A model generated the notes under the pieces. That model was not told where the DNA came from. It saw nothing but the letters and a program-made list of their open reading frames with translations, and did not search any database. From the IMG/VR virus record IMGVR_UViG_3300033121_000168, positions 1 to 64,000 of that record: a stretch of 64,000 nucleotides of DNA. One strand, written 5' to 3'. Position 1 is the stretch's first letter; every line of letters starts with the position of its first letter. This stretch comes from a virus (lineage: Duplodnaviria > Heunggongvirae > Uroviricota > Caudoviricetes). Shown here one piece after another: positions 3,547 through 19,505 of the stretch. The position numbers and the translations under genes are program-made.

Positions 3547-3723
3547 ATGCAATACAAAAAAGGTAAAGTACCAAAAGGTCATAATTTTTCTGGTAGACTT
3601 CTTTTAGGCAGATGGAGTTATTGTAAAAAATGTCTAATCGTAAACCTAAACAATAAAGCTAGTCGAAAGAAAGTAGAACAAGCTTGTAGAGGTGATAAAT
3701 ATGATGATTATGAATTGGATTAA
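3547..3723 (+). CDS. hypothetical small basic protein
   Basis: Internal ATG of the 3454-3723 ORF; the listed upstream part overlaps the intergenic repeat. Confidence 0.35.
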   Translation: MQYKKGKVPKGHNFSGRLLLGRWSYCKKCLIVNLNNKASRKKVEQACRGDKYDDYELD

Positions 3724-13242: not shown

Positions 13243-13317
13243 GGGTAATTCGTATAGAGGTTATTACGGTGGATTGTCGATCCATTTACAGGAGTTCAAT
13301 TCTCCTATTGCCCGCCA
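13243..13317 (+). tRNA. tRNA-Asp(GTC)
   Basis: Acceptor GGGTAAT/ATTGCCC (one G-U), anticodon loop TTGTCGA, T-arm GGAGTTCAATTCTCC, CCA. Confidence 0.6.
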
Positions 13318-13322
13318 AACTT

Positions 13323-13398
13323 GCCTGAATAGCTCAGATGGTAGAGCGATTCCCTGAAGAGGAATGCGTCGGAGGTTCGAATCCTTCTTCTGGCACCA
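13323..13398 (+). tRNA. tRNA-Phe(GAA)
   Basis: D-arm AGCTCAGATGGTAGAGCG, anticodon arm ATTCC-CTGAAGA-GGAAT, T-arm GGAGGTTCGAATCCTTC; one acceptor mismatch. Confidence 0.75.
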
Positions 13399-13483
13399 AA
13401 GAAAATGCATGTTGTTTGGCTACAACAAACACTAATCAAGAATGATGACGATACTTGACATTGAAGTGGAAAGCTTCTATAAT

Positions 13484-13555
13484 AGAGACTTAGCACAGAG
13501 GTAGTGCGGCTCCTTTACACGGAGTAGGTCATAGGTTCGATCCCTATAGTCTCTA
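13484..13555 (+). tRNA. tRNA-Val(TAC)
   Basis: Acceptor AGAGACT/AGTCTCT, anticodon loop TTTACAC, T-arm ATAGGTTCGATCCCTAT; CCA not encoded. Confidence 0.7.
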
Positions 13556-13559
13556 CAAT

Positions 13560-13635
13560 GTCGATATAGTTTAGTTGGTTAGAACAGGAGACTTTCAATC
13601 TCCAAAGTCGGGTTCGATCCCCGATATCGACTCCA
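13560..13635 (+). tRNA. tRNA-Glu(TTC)
   Basis: Acceptor GTCGATA/TATCGAC, anticodon arm GGAGA-CTTTCAA-TCTCC, T-arm TCGGGTTCGATCCCCGA, CCA. Confidence 0.8.
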
Positions 13636-13647
13636 GAATTTTTAGGT

Positions 13648-13720
13648 GTGACTATAACTCAACTGGTTAGAGTTTCAGGTTGTGACCCTGAATGTGAGAG
13701 TTCAAGTCTCTCTAGTCACC
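13648..13720 (+). tRNA. tRNA-His(GTG)
   Basis: Acceptor GTGACTA/TAGTCAC, anticodon arm TCAGG-TTGTGAC-CCTGA, T-arm GAGAGTTCAAGTCTCTC. Confidence 0.75.
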
Positions 13721-13733
13721 CCTAAGAGTTTAA

Positions 13734-13809
13734 TGCGGGATAACTCAGTTGGTAGAGTGCGAGGCTCATAACCTTGATGTCGTCGGTTCGAATCCGGCTC
13801 CCGCAACCA
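13734..13809 (+). tRNA. tRNA-Met(CAT), elongator-type (or Ile2 via lysidine)
   Basis: Acceptor TGCGGGA/TCCCGCA fully paired, anticodon loop CTCATAA, T-arm GTCGGTTCGAATCCGGC, CCA. Confidence 0.75.
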
Positions 13810-13816
13810 GAATTGA

Positions 13817-13892
13817 TGCCGGTTAGCTCAGTTGTTAGAGCACTCGCTTGATAAGCGATAGGTCGTTGGTTAGAGTCCAACACTGGCAACCA
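13817..13892 (+). tRNA. tRNA-Ile(GAT)
   Basis: Acceptor TGCCGGT/ACTGGCA, D-arm GCTCAGTTGTTAGAGC, anticodon loop TTGATAA, CCA. Confidence 0.7.
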
Positions 13893-13922
13893 TTTGATGG
13901 GTCTTTATTTAAAAGATCTTGT

Positions 13923-14000
13923 TGGCGAGTAGAATAGTTTGGCCTAATTCAAGCGGCTTTGACCCGCTGATCGTTGGTTCGAATCCAACCTCGTCTGCCA
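13923..14000 (+). tRNA. tRNA-Gln(TTG), acceptor first pair U1-U72 mismatch
   Basis: Anticodon arm AGCGG-CTTTGAC-CCGCT, T-arm GTTGGTTCGAATCCAAC, acceptor TGGCGAG/CTCGTCT (6/7 pairs), CCA. Confidence 0.55.
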
Positions 14001-14007
14001 AATTTGT

Positions 14008-14093
14008 TCCGTTGTAGGAGAATTGGTAAATCCAGCACACTGTTAATGTGCCACTTAATTGTACTGTAGGTTCGAAGCCTACCAACGGAGCCA
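14008..14093 (+). tRNA. tRNA with anticodon GTT (Asn) but type-II length (86 nt, 14-nt variable region)
   Basis: Acceptor TCCGTTG/CAACGGA perfect, anticodon arm GCACA-CTGTTAA-TGTGC, extra CACTTAATTGTACT before T-arm GTAGGTTCGAAGCCTAC, CCA. Confidence 0.55.
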
Positions 14094-14095
14094 AA

Positions 14096-14317
14096 ATTTC
14101 AATACAGCTAGACCGGCCAGTCGAAAAGAATCAATTTTCAAATACAATTCCTCTTGAAGTTGAACATATTGATGGTAATAGTCAAAATAATGTAGAATCA
14201 AATTTAACCTTACTTTGTCCAAATTGTCACTCATTGACTAAAACTTATAAATCTTTGAATAAAGGTAATGGGGGATATAGTAGAATGAAAAGGTATAGAG
14301 AAGGTAAAAGTTATTAA
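14096..14317 (+). pseudogene. HNH homing-endonuclease remnant (C-terminal HNH motif only, no canonical start)
   Basis: In-frame translation ...EVEHIDGNSQNNVESNLTLLCPNCHSLTKTYKS... carries the HNH core; the frame opens inside the upstream tRNA with no ATG/GTG/TTG, only a possible ATT at 14096 after a GGAG. Confidence 0.5.
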
Positions 14318-14401
14318 GCTGGGTTAGCATAGTGGGAGTGCAACGGTTTTGTAATCCGTCGAAGAAATTCAAAGGGTGTTCGATTCACCCACTCAGCACC
14401 A
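14318..14401 (+). tRNA. tRNA with anticodon TGT (Thr) but 84 nt long (14-nt variable hairpin, U31-U39 mismatch)
   Basis: Acceptor GCTGGGT/ACTCAGC, anticodon arm ACGGT-TTTGTAA-TCCGT, variable CGAAGAAATTCAAA (GAA/TTC hairpin), T-arm GGGTGTTCGATTCACCC, CCA. Confidence 0.5.
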
Positions 14402-14410
14402 ATTTATAAT

Positions 14411-14487
14411 GCGTGTATGGTGTTTAACGGCTAACATCTCTGGCTTCCACCCAGAAGTTCTCGGTTCGAATCCGAGTACCCGCACCA
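14411..14487 (+). tRNA. tRNA-Gly(TCC)
   Basis: Anticodon arm TCTGG-CTTCCAC-CCAGA, T-arm CTCGGTTCGAATCCGAG, acceptor GCGTGTA/TACCCGC (one mismatch), CCA. Confidence 0.7.
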
Positions 14488-14491
14488 GAAT

Positions 14492-14588
14492 TACAGTATG
14501 GCCGAGTGACTAGGCAGCGAATTGCTCCTACATAAGTAGGAAAAGTCAAACTCGCTTCAGGCTGGTTAAAATCCAGTTACTGTATCCA
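14492..14588 (+). tRNA. tRNA-like gene (Ser-type TGGCCGAG D-arm) with a 31-nt insertion in the anticodon arm; possibly interrupted or pseudo
   Basis: Acceptor TACAGTA/TACTGTA perfect, D-arm GCCGAGTGACTAGGC, T-arm GCTGGTTAAAATCCAGT, CCA. The only 5-bp anticodon-stem pairing (AGCGA/TCGCT) encloses 31 nt (ATTGCTCCTACATAAGTAGGAAAAGTCAAAC) with an internal hairpin, not a 7-nt loop. Confidence 0.4.
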
Positions 14589-14593
14589 AATTA

Positions 14594-14679
14594 GGAGTAA
14601 TGGCGAAATGGTAGCCGCAAGAGTTTGCTAAACTCTCGTTAGAAATGGCGTGTAGGTTCAAGTCCTACTTACTCCGCCA
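14594..14679 (+). tRNA. tRNA-Ser(GCT), type II
   Basis: Acceptor GGAGTAA/TTACTCC perfect, anticodon arm AGAGT-TTGCTAA-ACTCT, long variable arm, T-arm GTAGGTTCAAGTCCTAC, CCA. Confidence 0.75.
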
Positions 14680-14688
14680 ATATGAATT

Positions 14689-14777
14689 AGAGTGTAGCTA
14701 CAAAGGGTACAAACAGGACTTGAAATCCTGGCTACTGTAGAGATACGGTAAGGGTTCGATTCCTTTACACTCTGCCA
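14689..14777 (+). tRNA. tRNA-Ser(TGA), type II
   Basis: Acceptor AGAGTGT/ACACTCT perfect, anticodon arm CAGGA-CTTGAAA-TCCTG, long variable arm, T-arm AAGGGTTCGATTCCTTT, CCA. Confidence 0.75.
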
Positions 14778-14784
14778 TAAATTA

Positions 14785-14870
14785 GGATGAGTAGACTCGT
14801 AAGGAGCGAGGACAGCCTGTAAAGCTGTTGTCTATCGGCCAGCTTGGATCGTTACCAAGGTCATCCACCA
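14785..14870 (+). tRNA. tRNA-Tyr(GTA), type II
   Basis: Anticodon arm ACAGC-CTGTAAA-GCTGT, long variable arm, T-arm CTTGGATCGTTACCAAG, acceptor GGATGAG/GTCATCC, CCA. Confidence 0.65.
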
Positions 14871-14876
14871 ATAAAT

Positions 14877-14953
14877 GGGGTCGCATGTACCAAGGGCGGC
14901 GAAGGAGGTTTGCACCTTTCTTGTGGTGAGTTCGATTCTCACTGGCTCCACCA
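14877..14953 (+). tRNA. tRNA-Ala(TGC) with G3-U70 identity pair
   Basis: Acceptor GGGGTCG/TGGCTCC including the G3-U70 wobble, anticodon loop TTTGCAC, T-arm GTGAGTTCGATTCTCAC, CCA. Confidence 0.7.
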
Positions 14954-14955
14954 AT

Positions 14956-15031
14956 CTTCATATAGCGCAGTTGGTAGCGCGTTTGCTTTGGGAGCATAAG
15001 GTCGAAGGTTCGAATCCTTCTATGAAGACCA
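14956..15031 (+). tRNA. tRNA-Pro(TGG)
   Basis: Acceptor CTTCATA/TATGAAG perfect, D-arm GCGCAGTTGGTAGCGC, anticodon loop TTTGGGA (G37), T-arm GAAGGTTCGAATCCTTC, CCA. Confidence 0.75.
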
Positions 15032-15038
15032 AATTAAA

Positions 15039-15122
15039 GCCTCGGTGGTGGAATGGTATACACACTGCGCTAAGAACGCAGCGCCGAAGGGATTGAGGGT
15101 TCGACTCCCTCCTGAGGCACCA
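15039..15122 (+). tRNA. tRNA-Leu, type II, anticodon read as AAG (unusual A34)
   Basis: Acceptor GCCTCGG/CTGAGGC, anticodon arm CTGCG-CTAAGAA-CGCAG, variable arm GCCGAAGGGATTG, T-arm GAGGGTTCGACTCCCTC, CCA; paralog of the tRNA at 176. Confidence 0.65.
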
Positions 15123-15559: not shown

Positions 15560-17108
15560 ATGAGTTCTAATACTGTATTTGCACCAGCGTCAAAAGCACA
15601 AGAGCAATTCTTGAATAGTGATGCAGATATTACTTTCTATGGTGGTAAAGTTGTGCCTCCATTCAAAACCTATTTAATTCGGTGAAACCCTAACGTAAAA
15701 TCGAGGGCAATACCGAGCCAAGCAGGGGGTATTTTTAATATCCCCGGGCGTGTGTAGAGACTATGGGAAACCAGTAAGGTTCAAGCGAATCTGAAACAGT
15801 AGGATGCTTTATAGCATAAGATATAGTCCGACACCCAAGGAAACTTGGGAGTACTCTAGCGAAGTACATAACTTTCTGGCAGCGGGCAGTGGAAAGAGCC
15901 ATTGCTTACTTATGTCGTTCCTAAAGTTTTGTCATCATCCACGTACTCGTGGTGTGATATTTAGGCGAACAACAAAGCAGATCACAAACCCTGGTGGTTT
16001 ATTTGACTCTGCAGTTAATTTATACAAATTAGTAGATCCTAAACTAAGAGTAAGAATGAGAGAGTTAGAACTTGTTTTTAGTTCTGGAGCTGTTCTCAAA
16101 TTTGCTTACCTTGACAATGCTTCTGATAAATATAACTTCCAAGGTGCGGAACTTACTTTCATTGGTTTTGATGAGATTCAACAATTAAGTGAAGACAATG
16201 TAACTTATTTGTTTTCTCGTTTGCGTTCAACCTCAGTTGATTATAAGAAGCAGATTGTAGCTACAGGTAATCCTGACTACGATAGTTTCATTCGACATTG
16301 GGTTGAATTTGCACTTGATGAGCGTGGCATTCCAATTAGAAAAGATGTTTACCCTACTCGATATATGTGTCAAGCGATGGGTGGCTCTATTGAGTGGGCA
16401 GATACTAGAGAAGAACTAGAGAAGAAATATGGTACTGGGGATGACTCTGGTATTCTATCCTTTACATTCATTCCAGGGACTATTTATGATAATCCACCTT
16501 TGATGAAGGCTGATCCGACTTACGTTAGTAAGTTAAAGAAACTTCCTCGCGTTGAGATGGAACGTCTTCTATTGGGGTCTTGGTATGCAAGACAAGAGGC
16601 TGCAGGACTATGGAAGAGAGAGTGGATTACTCTTGTAGATCATCCTAATCCTAAAGCAACAAAAAGGATTAGAGCCTGGGATTTTGCGTTTAGTCTACCC
16701 TCCGAACAATATCCAAATCCTGACTGGACTCGTGGTGTCCTTATGTCAAAGGATAAGAACAGTGTTTACACAGTTGAAAATGTCGTTTCTATGCGAGACA
16801 GAGTACACGAAGTTGAGAAGTTAGTATTTGAGACTGCAATTCGGGATGGACAAGAGGTTATTATTTCTATACCTATTGACCCTGCAGCAGCAGCAGGAGC
16901 ATATGCTAGAGACTTCCAACGGAGGCTTTCTGAATATGGTTTCAATGTGAAACTATCGAAGCCTGTAAAGTCCAAGGTAACTAGATTTGCTCCATTTTCG
17001 AGTGTAACTCAGGCTGGATTTGTTAATGTAGTAAAGGGTGATTGGAATACTCCTTTCTTTGATGAATTGGAGATATTCGATGGAGATCCTAAGAAAAAAG
17101 ACGATTAA
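15560..17108 (+). CDS. terminase large subunit, split gene: exon 1 15560-15646 (29 aa) + exon 2 15879-17108, joined by group I intron splicing
   Basis: Exon 1 (GGAGG RBS) encodes MSSNTVFAPASKAQEQFLNSDADITFYGG; exon 2 continues AAGSGKSHCLL... (Walker A), FDEIQ Walker B and a C-terminal nuclease domain. The Walker A motif YGG|AAGSGKS is regenerated only when 15647-15878 is removed; exon 2 is in frame 0 with the long ORF 15804-17108. Confidence 0.8.
15647..15878 (+). ncRNA. group I self-splicing intron (232 nt, no ORF) in the terminase large subunit gene
   Basis: 5' exon ends in U (..ATGGTGGT); internal guide sequence GCCTCCAT at 15655-15662 pairs 7/8 with the exon end; P7 strands AGAGACTATGG / AAGATATAGTCC (canonical S element); P9 hairpin CCCAAG-GAAA-CTTGGG; terminal G at 15878 precedes GCAGCGGGC of exon 2. 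Confidence 0.7.
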
Positions 17109-17314
17109 ATTGGGTCGTCTATAAACTCATTGAATTCGGTGGACACCTACTTGGAATCAAGTAGACAATACCGAGCGAAGCTGGTGTAATACCAGAACGT
17201 GTAACGACTAGCCGAAAGGCGTAGGGGCAAGTGCTCCGAAGCGGTGAGAAACCTAATAACTTAGGTTTAAGATATAGTCTCATCTGCATGGTGACATGCA
17301 GCATTTTAATATAG
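17106..17314 (+). ncRNA. second group I intron-like element inserted exactly after the last sense codon of the terminase large subunit (3' boundary uncertain)
   Basis: Exon end AGACGAT (17099-17105, last nt U) pairs perfectly with GTCGTCT at 17114-17120 (P1 with terminal U-G). Shares AATTCGGTG, CAATACCGAGCGAAGC, ACGACTAG (P7 5') and AAGATATAGTCT (P7 3') with the intron at 15647. P9-like hairpin CTGCATG-GTGA-CATGCAG. The terminase TAA stop is the first 3 nt of the element. Confidence 0.5.
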
Positions 17315-17324
17315 GAGAATTTCT

Positions 17325-17852
17325 ATGATTTATAATTCAAACTCTACAGGCCCTTTTAAAATTCTGCAAAGGAATGGTGATGCTTGTTTAATTCAGTTTA
17401 TAGACACCGGCACCACCAAAACTGCTTGTATTTCTAATATATTAGCTGGTAAAGTAAAAGACCAATATTTCCCTACTGTGTATGGTAAGGGGTATTATGG
17501 GGATTACGACAAGACCACGACTTATTACAAGCAGGCTAAACAGCTTTGGCAAAATATGCTAAAAAGATGTTATTGCGAAAAAGACTTAAAAGGTTACTAT
17601 GGTAAAGCAACAGTATCACAAAGATGGCTGAACTTTAGCAATTTCCTAGAGGATTTACCTAGCCTTGTAAACTTTAAGCAGTGGCTTGCTGGACAACAAA
17701 AAACAGGCGGGAAATATAATCTGGATAAAGATTTAAAGGTAAAAGGTAATACCTGTTACTGTAAAGAAGCCTGTATGTTCGTAACTGAGTTTGAAAATAA
17801 ATCAGAGGGCGCTAAAAATGGCAAACCTTATACTAAAATGGGCAAGAGTTAA
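17325..17852 (+). CDS. hypothetical protein next to the second intron-like element; possible intron-associated endonuclease/DNA-binding protein
   Basis: 175 aa with its own GGAG RBS; W-x2-M-x2-RC-Y motif (LWQNMLKRCY) and Tyr/Lys-rich regions reminiscent of DNA-binding modules in homing endonucleases; the position mirrors intron-encoded ORFs. Confidence 0.4.
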   Translation: MIYNSNSTGPFKILQRNGDACLIQFIDTGTTKTACISNILAGKVKDQYFPTVYGKGYYGDYDKTTTYYKQAKQLWQNMLKRCYCEKDLKGYYGKATVSQRWLNFSNFLEDLPSLVNFKQWLAGQQKTGGKYNLDKDLKVKGNTCYCKEACMFVTEFENKSEGAKNGKPYTKMGKS

Positions 17853-18056
17853 CGCCTCTTGTTTAAGGTAATGCAAGCTGATTGTTGTTCAGACGCTTTC
17901 TTGCTTTTGAACAGAGAGTTGATCATACCTGAGATGACTATAACAGAGTTGTCTTCATCAAACCCCTTCAATTTTAACACAAGTCTAGGTCACACAGGAT
18001 TATCTGCTCCACCTTTACCTACAAATTTACCTTCTTTTAATTTTTAAAGGATAATT

Positions 18057-19505
18057 ATGGAAACAAAAGTAGAAAAAGGATTAGATGATCCTAATCGTTT
18101 TAAGCTTTCTGAGATGGGATACATTGGATTAAATATCTTTGATGGTATTACTTCGGATGAACTAAAGAAGGAATTGAATTTCCCTTATAATCTAAAGACA
18201 TATAAACAAATGTCAGTTCATTCTACAATTAATTCAGCTTTAACTTTATATGACAACATTATCAGTAAAGCTAATTGGGTTGTAAGACCTCCAGAATCAC
18301 CTACTCAGGAAGAAAAAGATCAGACTAAATTCATTGAAGAATGTATGCAAGATATGGAACATTCTTGGTCTGAATTTATTCAAGAAGCTTTAAGTATGAC
18401 CACTTTTGGTTTTTCTGTGCATGAAAAAGTCTACCGTAGACGATTTTCTTCTAATGGTAGTAAATATAATGATGGTAAAATTGGTTGGAAAAAGATTCCA
18501 ATTCGTTGCCAGGAAAGTATTACTAGATTTATTTATTCAGAAGATGGAAATGACTTAGTTGGTGTTAAACAGAATGTTTCTGCTTTACAAGATCCAATGA
18601 ATCGCTACAAGAATAAGACTGAAGTTGCTTTTCCAATTTCTAAAGTTCTTCTCTTTAGAACTGGTCGTCATAGAGGTGATCCATTTGGTAAGAGTCCCTT
18701 GCGTGATGCTTATCTAGCATGGAGATACTTGATGGCTTTGGAAGAAATTGAAGCTACTGGAGTTACTAAGGATTTGCAAGGATTTCCGGTTCTGTACCTG
18801 CCACCTCAGTACTTAGCATCAGATGCCACACCAGAACAGAAGACTATTCGTACATACTATGAGCAGTCTATGGCTAATCTTCAAATGAATCAGCAGTCTG
18901 CTATGATTCTTCCACAAGCATTCGATCCTGATACAAAGCAGCCTTTGTTCAAGATGGAGCTTTTAAGCGTCTCTGGTCAAAAGGGCTTTGACACAGTAAA
19001 AATTAAAGAATACTATAAAAATTTAATCCTTACTTCATTATTCGCGGATATTCTAATCATGGGTCAAAGTACTACAGGTAGTTTTGCACTTGGTCAGATT
19101 AAAAATAGTCTTACAGGTACTGCTGCTGAATCTTTTATTTCCACTATTAGGGATGTAATCAATAAAGATCTGATCCGCCAGACTTACGAATTGAATGGTT
19201 GGGATGCTTCAAGAGCTTGTGTAATTGATTATGAAAACATTGATAGTGTAGATGCTGAAACATTCTCTAAGGCAATTCAACGTATTGCTTCAGTAGGATT
19301 CTTGACGAAAGACCTTGACACTATTAATAAGATTAGAAATGTATTAGGTACAGATGAACTTCCTGAGGGGACAGATTTTGAATCTTTACTTAGTGATATC
19401 ACATCCAGGTCTGGTGATGGGATGAGTAAAGGGTCAGGAAATGGAACAAGCGATGTAGTTGCTTCAACTGATACCTCTTCCAATAATGCAAATAATGCGA
19501 GTTAA
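18057..19505 (+). CDS. portal protein
   Basis: 482 aa, AAGGAT RBS, downstream of terminase; size and composition typical of siphovirus portals, acidic C-terminus. Confidence 0.65.
   Translation: METKVEKGLDDPNRFKLSEMGYIGLNIFDGITSDELKKELNFPYNLKTYKQMSVHSTINSALTLYDNIISKANWVVRPPESPTQEEKDQTKFIEECMQDMEHSWSEFIQEALSMTTFGFSVHEKVYRRRFSSNGSKYNDGKIGWKKIPIRCQESITRFIYSEDGNDLVGVKQNVSALQDPMNRYKNKTEVAFPISKVLLFRTGRHRGDPFGKSPLRDAYLAWRYLMALEEIEATGVTKDLQGFPVLYLPPQYLASDATPEQKTIRTYYEQSMANLQMNQQSAMILPQAFDPDTKQPLFKMELLSVSGQKGFDTVKIKEYYKNLILTSLFADILIMGQSTTGSFALGQIKNSLTGTAAESFISTIRDVINKDLIRQTYELNGWDASRACVIDYENIDSVDAETFSKAIQRIASVGFLTKDLDTINKIRNVLGTDELPEGTDFESLLSDITSRSGDGMSKGSGNGTSDVVASTDTSSNNANNAS

Follow-up and report, generated by a model that had tools for sequence, protein, structure and literature searches.

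The subject of this study is an element in the large-terminase gene (terL) of a tailed phage (Caudoviricetes), found in a window of 64,000 nucleotides that comprises positions 1 to 64,000 of the IMG/VR virus record IMGVR_UViG_3300033121_000168. Positions 17106-17873 of this window very probably represent a mobile group I intron, which is inserted in terL at a point 57 codons upstream of the real gene end and harbors a probable endonuclease gene of its own. It is called intron 2 here, and another group I intron further upstream in the same gene is called intron 1; all features are on the plus strand. A first-pass annotation of this DNA had already recognized a group I intron-like element at 17099-17852. 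The element is real, its features being well beyond chance, but the end given for it is 21 nt short of 17873. The same annotation had placed the insertion at the exact end of the terminase coding sequence (CDS), the stop codon being swallowed by the intron. This TAA turned out to be intronic, and 57 more codons are found in exon 3. Because exon 3 has been recognized, an intron at the apparent CDS end is no longer odd.

The Terminase Gene and Its Three Exons

The terminase gene is predicted to consist of three exons encoding 495 residues, in contrast to the 434-aa open reading frame (ORF) that ends at 17108. A DNA search of annotated phages retrieved Limnohabitans phage DC31, which is 72% identical to part of exon 2, as well as the KIL group of Pseudomonas phages, whose match comprises the intron and its ORF. 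Exon 1 (15560-15646) has 29 codons, and its C-terminal end ...ITFYGG is colinear with the N-terminus of the DC31 terminase, ...ITLAGG|AAGSGK. Exon 2 (15879-17105) has 409 codons, ends with ...FDGDPKKKDD, matches Terminase_6N and Terminase_6C, and was likewise aligned to DC31. Exon 3 (17874-18047) comprises 57 codons and the stop codon TAA at 18045-18047; it begins with QADCCSDAFLLLNRE, in frame directly after G17873. The DC31 terminase is uninterrupted (489 aa) and reads ...FDGDPKKKDDQVDCCSDAMLLLNKE... across the site of intron 2, with KKKDDQVDCCSDAMLLLNKE uninterrupted at the position of the exon 2/exon 3 junction.

Joining 15560-15646, 15879-17105 and 17874-18047 results in a 495-aa protein, which aligns with DC31 TerL without gaps at both junctions, with 293 identical positions in 497 alignment columns. 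The predicted peptide across the exon 2/exon 3 junction is KKKDDQADCCSDAF. Both Pfam domains of large terminase subunits are complete in the spliced product. Terminase_6N covers profile positions 2-214 of 215 (78.9 bits), and the match to Terminase_6C, which without exon 3 comprises profile positions 2-132 of 155 (48.9 bits), extends to positions 2-153 (57.8 bits) when exon 3 is included. Exon 3 carries the conserved Q-x-D-x-x-S-D-A motif of the terminase nuclease domain, and intron 2 separates ...KKKDD from QADCCSDA.... The insertion thereby falls within the catalytic motif of the RNase-H-like nuclease domain at the C-terminus. The true terminase stop at 18045-18047 lies nine bases 5' of the portal gene (Portal_Mu).

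Boundaries, P1 Helix and Ribozyme Core of Intron 2

The analysis of the intron made use of a large set of relatives. All 16 homologs of the intron ORF on viral contigs have a group I core just upstream. A metagenome scan added 80 loci, so that there were 96 loci in all, and the same core was found with an nhmmer profile in 79 of them. The 5' splice site could be placed for 35 distinct introns, and the 3' splice site also for 24 of these. Together with the gap-free alignment to DC31 TerL, the 24 introns with both splice sites delimit intron 2 to 17106-17873 (768 nt). A covariance-model search, which had been proposed as a check in the first-pass annotation, was positive for both introns of the window: RF00028 matches at 17050-17301 with 74.1 bits (E 6e-17, full model 1-253, gathering threshold 50), and at 15637-15850, i.e., at intron 1, with 62.1 bits. 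The scores of the relatives are between 55 and 95 bits.

The P1 helix (17099-17120) has 7 bp and is formed by the last bases of the 5' exon, AGACGAU (17099-17105), and the internal guide GUCGUCU (17114-17120), in agreement with the helix that had been noticed before. The 5' splice site is located after U17105, which forms the terminal U.G pair with G17114, and the P1 loop UAAAUUGG opens with the in-frame stop codon TAA (17106-17108), which thus directly follows the splice site, also as described before. In the 35 related introns P1 consists of 7 contiguous pairs in 34 cases and of 6 pairs in one, and the U.G pair is present in 35/35. Exon position -7, a third codon position, covaries with the guide (A-U in 24, U-A in 7 and C-G in 3 introns), and at position -4 the C-G pair is replaced by U-A once among the 35 introns. 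The covariation of P1 at -7 and -4 speaks directly for pairing between exon and intron. The Rfam alignment puts P1 and P2 on exon positions 17050-17095 and treats 17095-17122 as an insertion; this arrangement was rejected in favor of the covarying P1 at 17099-17120.

The ribozyme core (17126-17301) was deduced from the RF00028 alignment and contains the helices P3 to P9, with P3 and P7 forming the pseudoknot. P3 is formed by 17126-17132/17242-17248, P4 by 17136-17141/17169-17174, and P8 by 17251-17256/17261-17266; P5 and P6/P6a are also present. P7 (GACUA 17206-17210/UAGUC 17275-17279) is invariant and therefore uninformative for covariation. P7.1 (17211-17220) exists in some relatives only, and P7.2 (17224-17228/17233-17237) has compensatory changes in three of its four pairs. 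The P9-like hairpin of the first-pass annotation was retrieved as a 7-bp P9 at 17284-17290/17295-17301. RNAalifold, applied to nine distinct relatives, predicted P1, P3, P4, P5, P6, P6a, P7.2, P8, and P9. Of its 51 pairs, 26 have changed in a compensatory manner; those in the core fall in P3, P4, P5, P6, P6a, P7.2, P8, and P9. Judged from the P7.1/P7.2 insertions between the 5' strand of P7 and the 3' strand of P3, intron 2 is of the phage IA type. A scan for promoters and terminators retrieved nothing above background except P9.

The 3' End of Intron 2

The 3' splice site is remote from the core. Of the two locations considered in the first-pass annotation, the one beyond the 175-aa ORF was correct, and the intron ends with G17873. 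The end of the intron contains a hairpin (17842-17862), in which GCAAGAG (17842-17848) pairs with CUCUUGU (17856-17862) over 7 bp. The stop codon of the ORF, TAA 17850-17852, is situated in the loop, and therefore the coding end doubles as ribozyme structure. In the window and in 12 of 24 relatives the ORF stop is this TAA of the hairpin loop. The covariation value of the hairpin across 25 related introns is 0.86, compared to 0.26 for shuffles (0/500 reach 0.86) and at most 0.27 for slid controls, and changes on both sides occur at all 7 pairs. The minimum free energy of the hairpin segment is -9.4 kcal/mol (z -2.2).

The hairpin is followed by the 3'-terminal segment (17863-17873), UUAAGGUAAUG, which ends in the omega G, G17873; the 3' splice site is 17873|17874. 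A G immediately precedes exon 3 in 24/24 of the relatives with placed 3' splice site, and an UUAAxA motif is conserved. The layout of the last ~45 nt, i.e., (A/G)UGG, hairpin, UUAA(G/C/U)A, 3-7 nt, and G, is kept regardless of where the ORF stops. Splicing after G17867, which would add the two residues VM, was ruled out, as there is no indel at the junction in comparison to DC31 and 47 intronless relatives. A mimic of the 5' exon in the tail was also considered. In most relatives ACGAC in the tail loop is complementary to GUCGU of the guide, and the window loop UUAACGC pairs over 3 bp; such a mimic is not claimed here.

TAA is present in all three reading frames within the last 24 nt of the intron (17850-17873; at 17850, 17864, and 17869). 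Stop codons in three frames are found in the last 30 nt of 15 of 25 related tails, compared to 3.1 expected from shuffles, a count that is not independent because the sequences are related. The three-frame stops could shield the 3' splice site from ribosomes.

Site Conservation and Presence/Absence of the Intron

All 35 introns are inserted after ...(K/H)-D-D, encoded by GAYGAU|, and the sequence after the 3' splice site is (Q/I/M)-x-D-x-x-(S/A/G)-D-A in 24/24. The common insertion site ..(K/H)DD|(Q/I/M)xD..DA is found in terminases of the Terminase_6C type as well as of the T7 type. The T7-type host terminase (PF22530) was confirmed for L061 and L081, the two metagenome loci that were checked; the intron and the ORF family follow ...S-L-x-H-D-D in these two loci and in L063, L080, and L083. 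The occurrence of the intron in both types of hosts at one site means that it has moved between very different phages. The intron begins with TAA, TAG, or TGA in 31 of 35 relatives. A stop codon at the start is thus a family trait, and the former view that it marks an unusual or decaying event is no longer tenable.

Comparison with related genomes had also been suggested earlier, and phages lacking the insertion indeed exist. Among 78 viral contigs with relatives of the spliced C-terminus the site is intact and uninterrupted in 47, so the intron is polymorphic. At position -1, 28 of the 47 uninterrupted alleles have C and the other 19 have T, and the intron-containing alleles have T in 35/35. 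The latter is expected if the U.G pair is required and the flank is co-converted.

Several loci deviate from the common arrangement. A related core is located downstream, not upstream, of the ORF homolog in L048, L050, L053, L055, and L058. No core match was obtained at 17 loci, and more distant ORF homologs (35-45% identity) have no detectable core; these may be free-standing or may reside in other introns or genes. In L013 exon 3 is shortened (3552-3585; QVDASSDAIGP*) by a 1-nt difference from L014, which points to an error in sequencing or else to a pseudogene. L019 contains up to three or four group I cores within ~2.5 kb (118-331, 1729-1835, 2374-2619). In the T7-like Klebsiella phage Henu2_3 (L003, 1937-4890) the terminase is annotated as three CDSs, the last two of which are separated by a GIY-YIG ORF, and the sequence right after the first CDS is ~70% identical to the core of intron 2. 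The Henu2_3 terminase appears to be an unrecognized multi-intron gene, and at least one of its insertions occupies another site.

The Intron ORF

The intron ORF (17325-17852; 175 aa) is located between P9 and the 3' hairpin. Its own ribosome-binding site and its W-x2-M-x2-RC motif (WQNMLKRC), both of which had been pointed out in the first-pass annotation, are present in the sequence, and the proposal made there that it could be the homing endonuclease is plausible. The translation initiation region (17310-17327) has the Shine-Dalgarno (SD) sequence GGAG at 17314-17317, eight bases 5' of the AUG at 17325-17327. SD and AUG can be drawn into a 7-bp hairpin (UAUAGGA/UUCUAUG, loop GAAU), which is weak, its energy of -3 kcal/mol being no better than that of shuffles. 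The relatives L012 and L019 have the same hairpin shape with a different stem (UAUAAAG/CUUUAUA) and energies of -3 to -5 kcal/mol, which also are no better than shuffles.

In the PHROGs database the ORF matches phrog_2081 (E 8.6e-45), phrog_953, and phrog_3377, all of which are labelled HNH endonuclease. By sequence, 184 relatives were retrieved, and with a profile the family grew to at least 596 phage proteins; among the matches listed, none of the relatives has a Pfam domain. The family alignment has 32 invariant columns, which include Q73-L74-W75, K80-R81-C82-Y83, L133-D134-K135-D136, C150, and N158. The AlphaFold (AF2) model (predicted local distance difference test score, pLDDT, 91.7) consists of an SH3-like barrel (2-35), helices with the W-x2-M-x2-RC motif, and a C-terminal strand-strand-helix, i.e., a beta-beta-alpha unit (131-134, 151-154, 155-165). 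The family has two length classes of ~178 aa and ~240 aa, and in the longer class the N-terminal SH3-like module SN-x-x-G...F-x-x-TG-x(n)-GK-x-x-D is duplicated, which suggests modular DNA-binding repeats. The ORF resides inside the intron, and related genomes either have or lack intron plus ORF at a single conserved site, the arrangement by which a homing endonuclease gene is recognized. Judged from where it is located, how it is distributed and which PHROG label it has, the ORF probably encodes a homing endonuclease.

Intron 1 and Neighboring Genes

Intron 1 (15647-15878) is 232 nt long, has no ORF, and is inserted inside the Walker A codons. Its removal restores the Walker A motif (GG|AAGSGKS), gap-free in comparison to DC31. 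Four sequence blocks had been reported to be common to both introns. This is true for three of them, namely, AATTCGGTG (17133 in intron 2/15676 in intron 1), CAATACCGAGC (17166/15708), and AAGATATAGTC (17269/15818). The fourth, ACGACTAG (17204), occurs only in intron 2, and intron 1 has just its GACTA (15759). The earlier conclusion that the two ribozymes are related is upheld.

The portal gene of the window (18057-19505) is uninterrupted. A tRNA array with 16 genes (13243-15119) lies directly upstream of the packaging module. Inside this array is a short ORF (14048-14317) with the canonical HNH motif EVEHIDGN...NLTLLCPNCH.

Proposed Mechanism

Transcription would pass through terL, and ribosomes coming from exon 2 would be halted at the intronic TAA 17106-17108. 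The guide GUCGUCU and the last seven bases of exon 2 would form P1, and the core P3-P9 would fold just downstream. Guanosine would then attack after U17105. The remote 3' splice site would be brought to the core by the 3' hairpin together with G17873. Ligation of 17105 to 17874 would, together with the removal of intron 1, lead to the 495-aa terminase. The ORF would be translated from its own SD/AUG, and its product would, in a mixed infection, cut terminase alleles that lack the intron, either at AAAGAYGAY|CARGT or close to it; AAGAAAGACGAT|CAAGTTGACTGT is an example of a putative intronless target. Repair after the cut would copy the intron into the allele (homing).

Weighing of the Evidence and Alternative Explanations

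Several points weigh against a splicing, mobile intron with an endonuclease gene. We infer splicing, as well as nuclease activity and homing, from the sequence. The candidate partner for P10, UUG (17110-17112), which would pair with the first three bases of exon 3, CAA (17874-17876), is weak; in the window it comprises 3 bp with a 1-nt offset, and it varies from 1 to 6 bp across the relatives. RNAalifold applied to the concatenated core and tail found no pairing that links the conserved unpaired portions of the tail to the core, and its output consisted of just three implausible pairs located in exon 3. The ORF has no sequence match in Pfam, NCBIfam or the PDB, and a PDB fold search yielded no significant match beyond the SH3-like barrel. 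Pfam and NCBIfam gave no match for 39 family members either, and the C-terminal segments did not match HNH, HNH_3 or others even at E<=10. The 175-aa protein does not contain a single histidine; the position at the end of strand 1, where His is expected in HNH enzymes, is occupied by the invariant D134-K135-D136, and of the HNH residues just the helix Asn, N158, is conserved. A comparison of the ORF with the canonical HNH ORF of the window by hhalign retrieved nothing. Because both the defining His and a profile match are missing, the ORF was not filed as an HNH enzyme. Its assignment as a nuclease draws on the PHROG label, the position and the distribution.

These results are relevant for the view that the intron splices but that the ORF product is no longer, or never was, a DNA endonuclease, and instead, for example, binds DNA or RNA, acts like a maturase or has been domesticated as a regulator. 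This is rather unlikely. It would be in accord with the missing general base of canonical HNH enzymes, with the failure of the C-terminal segments to match HNH profiles, and with the empty hhalign result. However, the ORF family always goes together with this intron at one and the same site, in Terminase_6C-type as well as in T7-type terminases, and presence and absence alternate among relatives, which is the pattern expected of active homing. In addition, D134, K135, D136, and N158 are invariant in the predicted beta-beta-alpha unit, and phrog_2081, phrog_953, and phrog_3377 are annotated as endonuclease families.

A quite different and similarly speculative proposal, which we regard as doubtful, is that the ORF represents a mechanistically new class of homing endonucleases. 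Such an enzyme would be His-less and invisible to Pfam, would be composed of SH3, helical and beta-beta-alpha parts, and would use Asp/Lys/Asn chemistry. The target of its homing would be the active-site codons of the terminase nuclease across unrelated phage groups (T7-like, KIL/Pakpuna-like), and, as its coding end doubles as the 3'-terminal hairpin, an RNA could not be translated over the ORF and spliced at the 3' site at the same time.

It is very improbable that the element is a decayed, non-splicing remnant, the terminase being truncated at KKKDD and exon 3 being a relic. The weak P10 and the indirect nature of the evidence for splicing would fit a remnant, but all core helices are intact and are kept by compensatory changes, and more than 180 relatives have an intact ORF. 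Furthermore, exon 3 is open and in frame, its protein sequence is conserved as far as the portal gene at loci with the intron, and it encodes the conserved acidic motif of the nuclease domain, which is present in 47/47 matched uninterrupted relatives.

The other splice site of the first-pass annotation was near 17314, where splicing would add ENFYDL to a terminase that has its natural CDS end at the intron, the ORF being a free-standing downstream gene. The TAA right after the 5' splice site and the end of the Rfam match at 17301 seem to favor this arrangement. However, intronless homologs continue with Q(V/A)DCCSDA... right after KKKDD, and this sequence is found in frame at 17874, where it completes Terminase_6C. 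The tail with its covarying hairpin and its terminal G is kept downstream of the ORF in 25 introns, and the region around 17314 is the ribosome-binding site of the ORF and is conserved as such. Splicing near 17314 was rejected, and this explanation has next to no probability. Equally improbable is a gene in pieces, in which two polypeptides (from exons 1 and 2, and from exon 3) assemble without RNA splicing: a TTG at 17859 opens an ORF over exon 3, but it is not preceded by a Shine-Dalgarno sequence, the exon 3 piece would have just ~60 aa, and the flanking RNA lacks no feature of a full ribozyme, its splice sites being where they should be.

Comparison With Known Systems and Significance

The closest parallel to intron 2 was found in Pseudomonas phages of the KIL group, namely, vB_PsyM_KIL1 (KIL1, Flaumdravirus, NC_030934, L001) and its KIL relatives. 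They have a 770-nt intron (L001 4010-4779) at the identical site, ...NIKDD|QVDATSDAF, with the same core, a 178-aa ORF that is 57-59% identical, and the same 3' hairpin. In contrast, the KIL1 host terminase is only distantly related, and the other terminase intron of KIL1 is inserted elsewhere than intron 1 of the window. The RefSeq entry of KIL1 lets the terminase CDS stop at the TAA inside the intron (L001 4012), lists the intron ORF as a separate HNH endonuclease, and leaves exon 3 (L001 4780-4890, QVDATSDAFHALSS...) unannotated. The KIL1 portal gene also carries a group I intron (L009 4424-4739). Among the papers searched, there was no mention of introns in the terminases of KIL, Flaumdravirus or Pakpunavirus.

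In layout, probably the nearest known parallel is the nrdD (sunY) intron of T4 with I-TevII, said to have been treated by Michel and co-workers in 1992. It is reportedly also a phage intron of the IA type with an ORF downstream of the core, a 3' splice site that is hundreds of nucleotides away from the core, and a short 3' domain that activates the core. It differs from intron 2 in that it resides in another host gene and that I-TevII is a GIY-YIG enzyme; the 3' domain of intron 2 consists of one hairpin and ~11 nt. A group I intron is reportedly also present in the terminase of Lactobacillus phage LL-H.

Phage terminase genes are already established as locations of group I introns that carry endonuclease genes, and intron 2 adds another such case. 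Experiments have shown terL introns to be self-splicing or spliced in vivo in Bastillevirinae, among them Bacillus phage SIOphi (PMC11878797), and in Vibrio phage ICP1 (PMC10448857), and it has been described that annotation pipelines miss short exons (PMC11878797, PMC10448857). These introns differ from intron 2 in their insertion sites and endonucleases: the terL introns of Bastillevirinae have phrog_559 (VSR-like) ORFs (PMC11878797), and an internal ORF is missing from the intron of ICP1 (PMC10448857). The Bastillevirinae study also describes phrog_2081 ORFs in DNA polymerase introns, which have NUMOD/HTH C-terminal domains, unlike the ORF of the window. Divergent "IPA-HNH" endonucleases, with an N-terminal HNH and a C-terminal AP2 domain, are abundant in Flaumdraviruses (PMC10448857). 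The intron ORF resembles the HNH-type homing endonucleases of phages (HNH_3/I-HmuI-like and IPA-HNH) in its HNH PHROG label, the predicted C-terminal beta-beta-alpha unit, the Asp-rich strand end and the helix Asn, and, like IPA-HNH according to that survey, it is too divergent for the HNH models of Pfam. It has no histidine, and it differs from the published description of IPA-HNH in that beta-beta-alpha is C-terminal and that an AP2 domain is missing.

The misannotation of KIL1 at the same intronic stop indicates that this class of mis-calls is probably widespread. Further interest lies in the large, conserved family of putative His-less endonucleases and in the possible role of the 3' tail. 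The locus itself represents a well-supported case of an intron/endonuclease pair that is situated at the most conserved codons of the terminase nuclease and has spread between very different terminase lineages.

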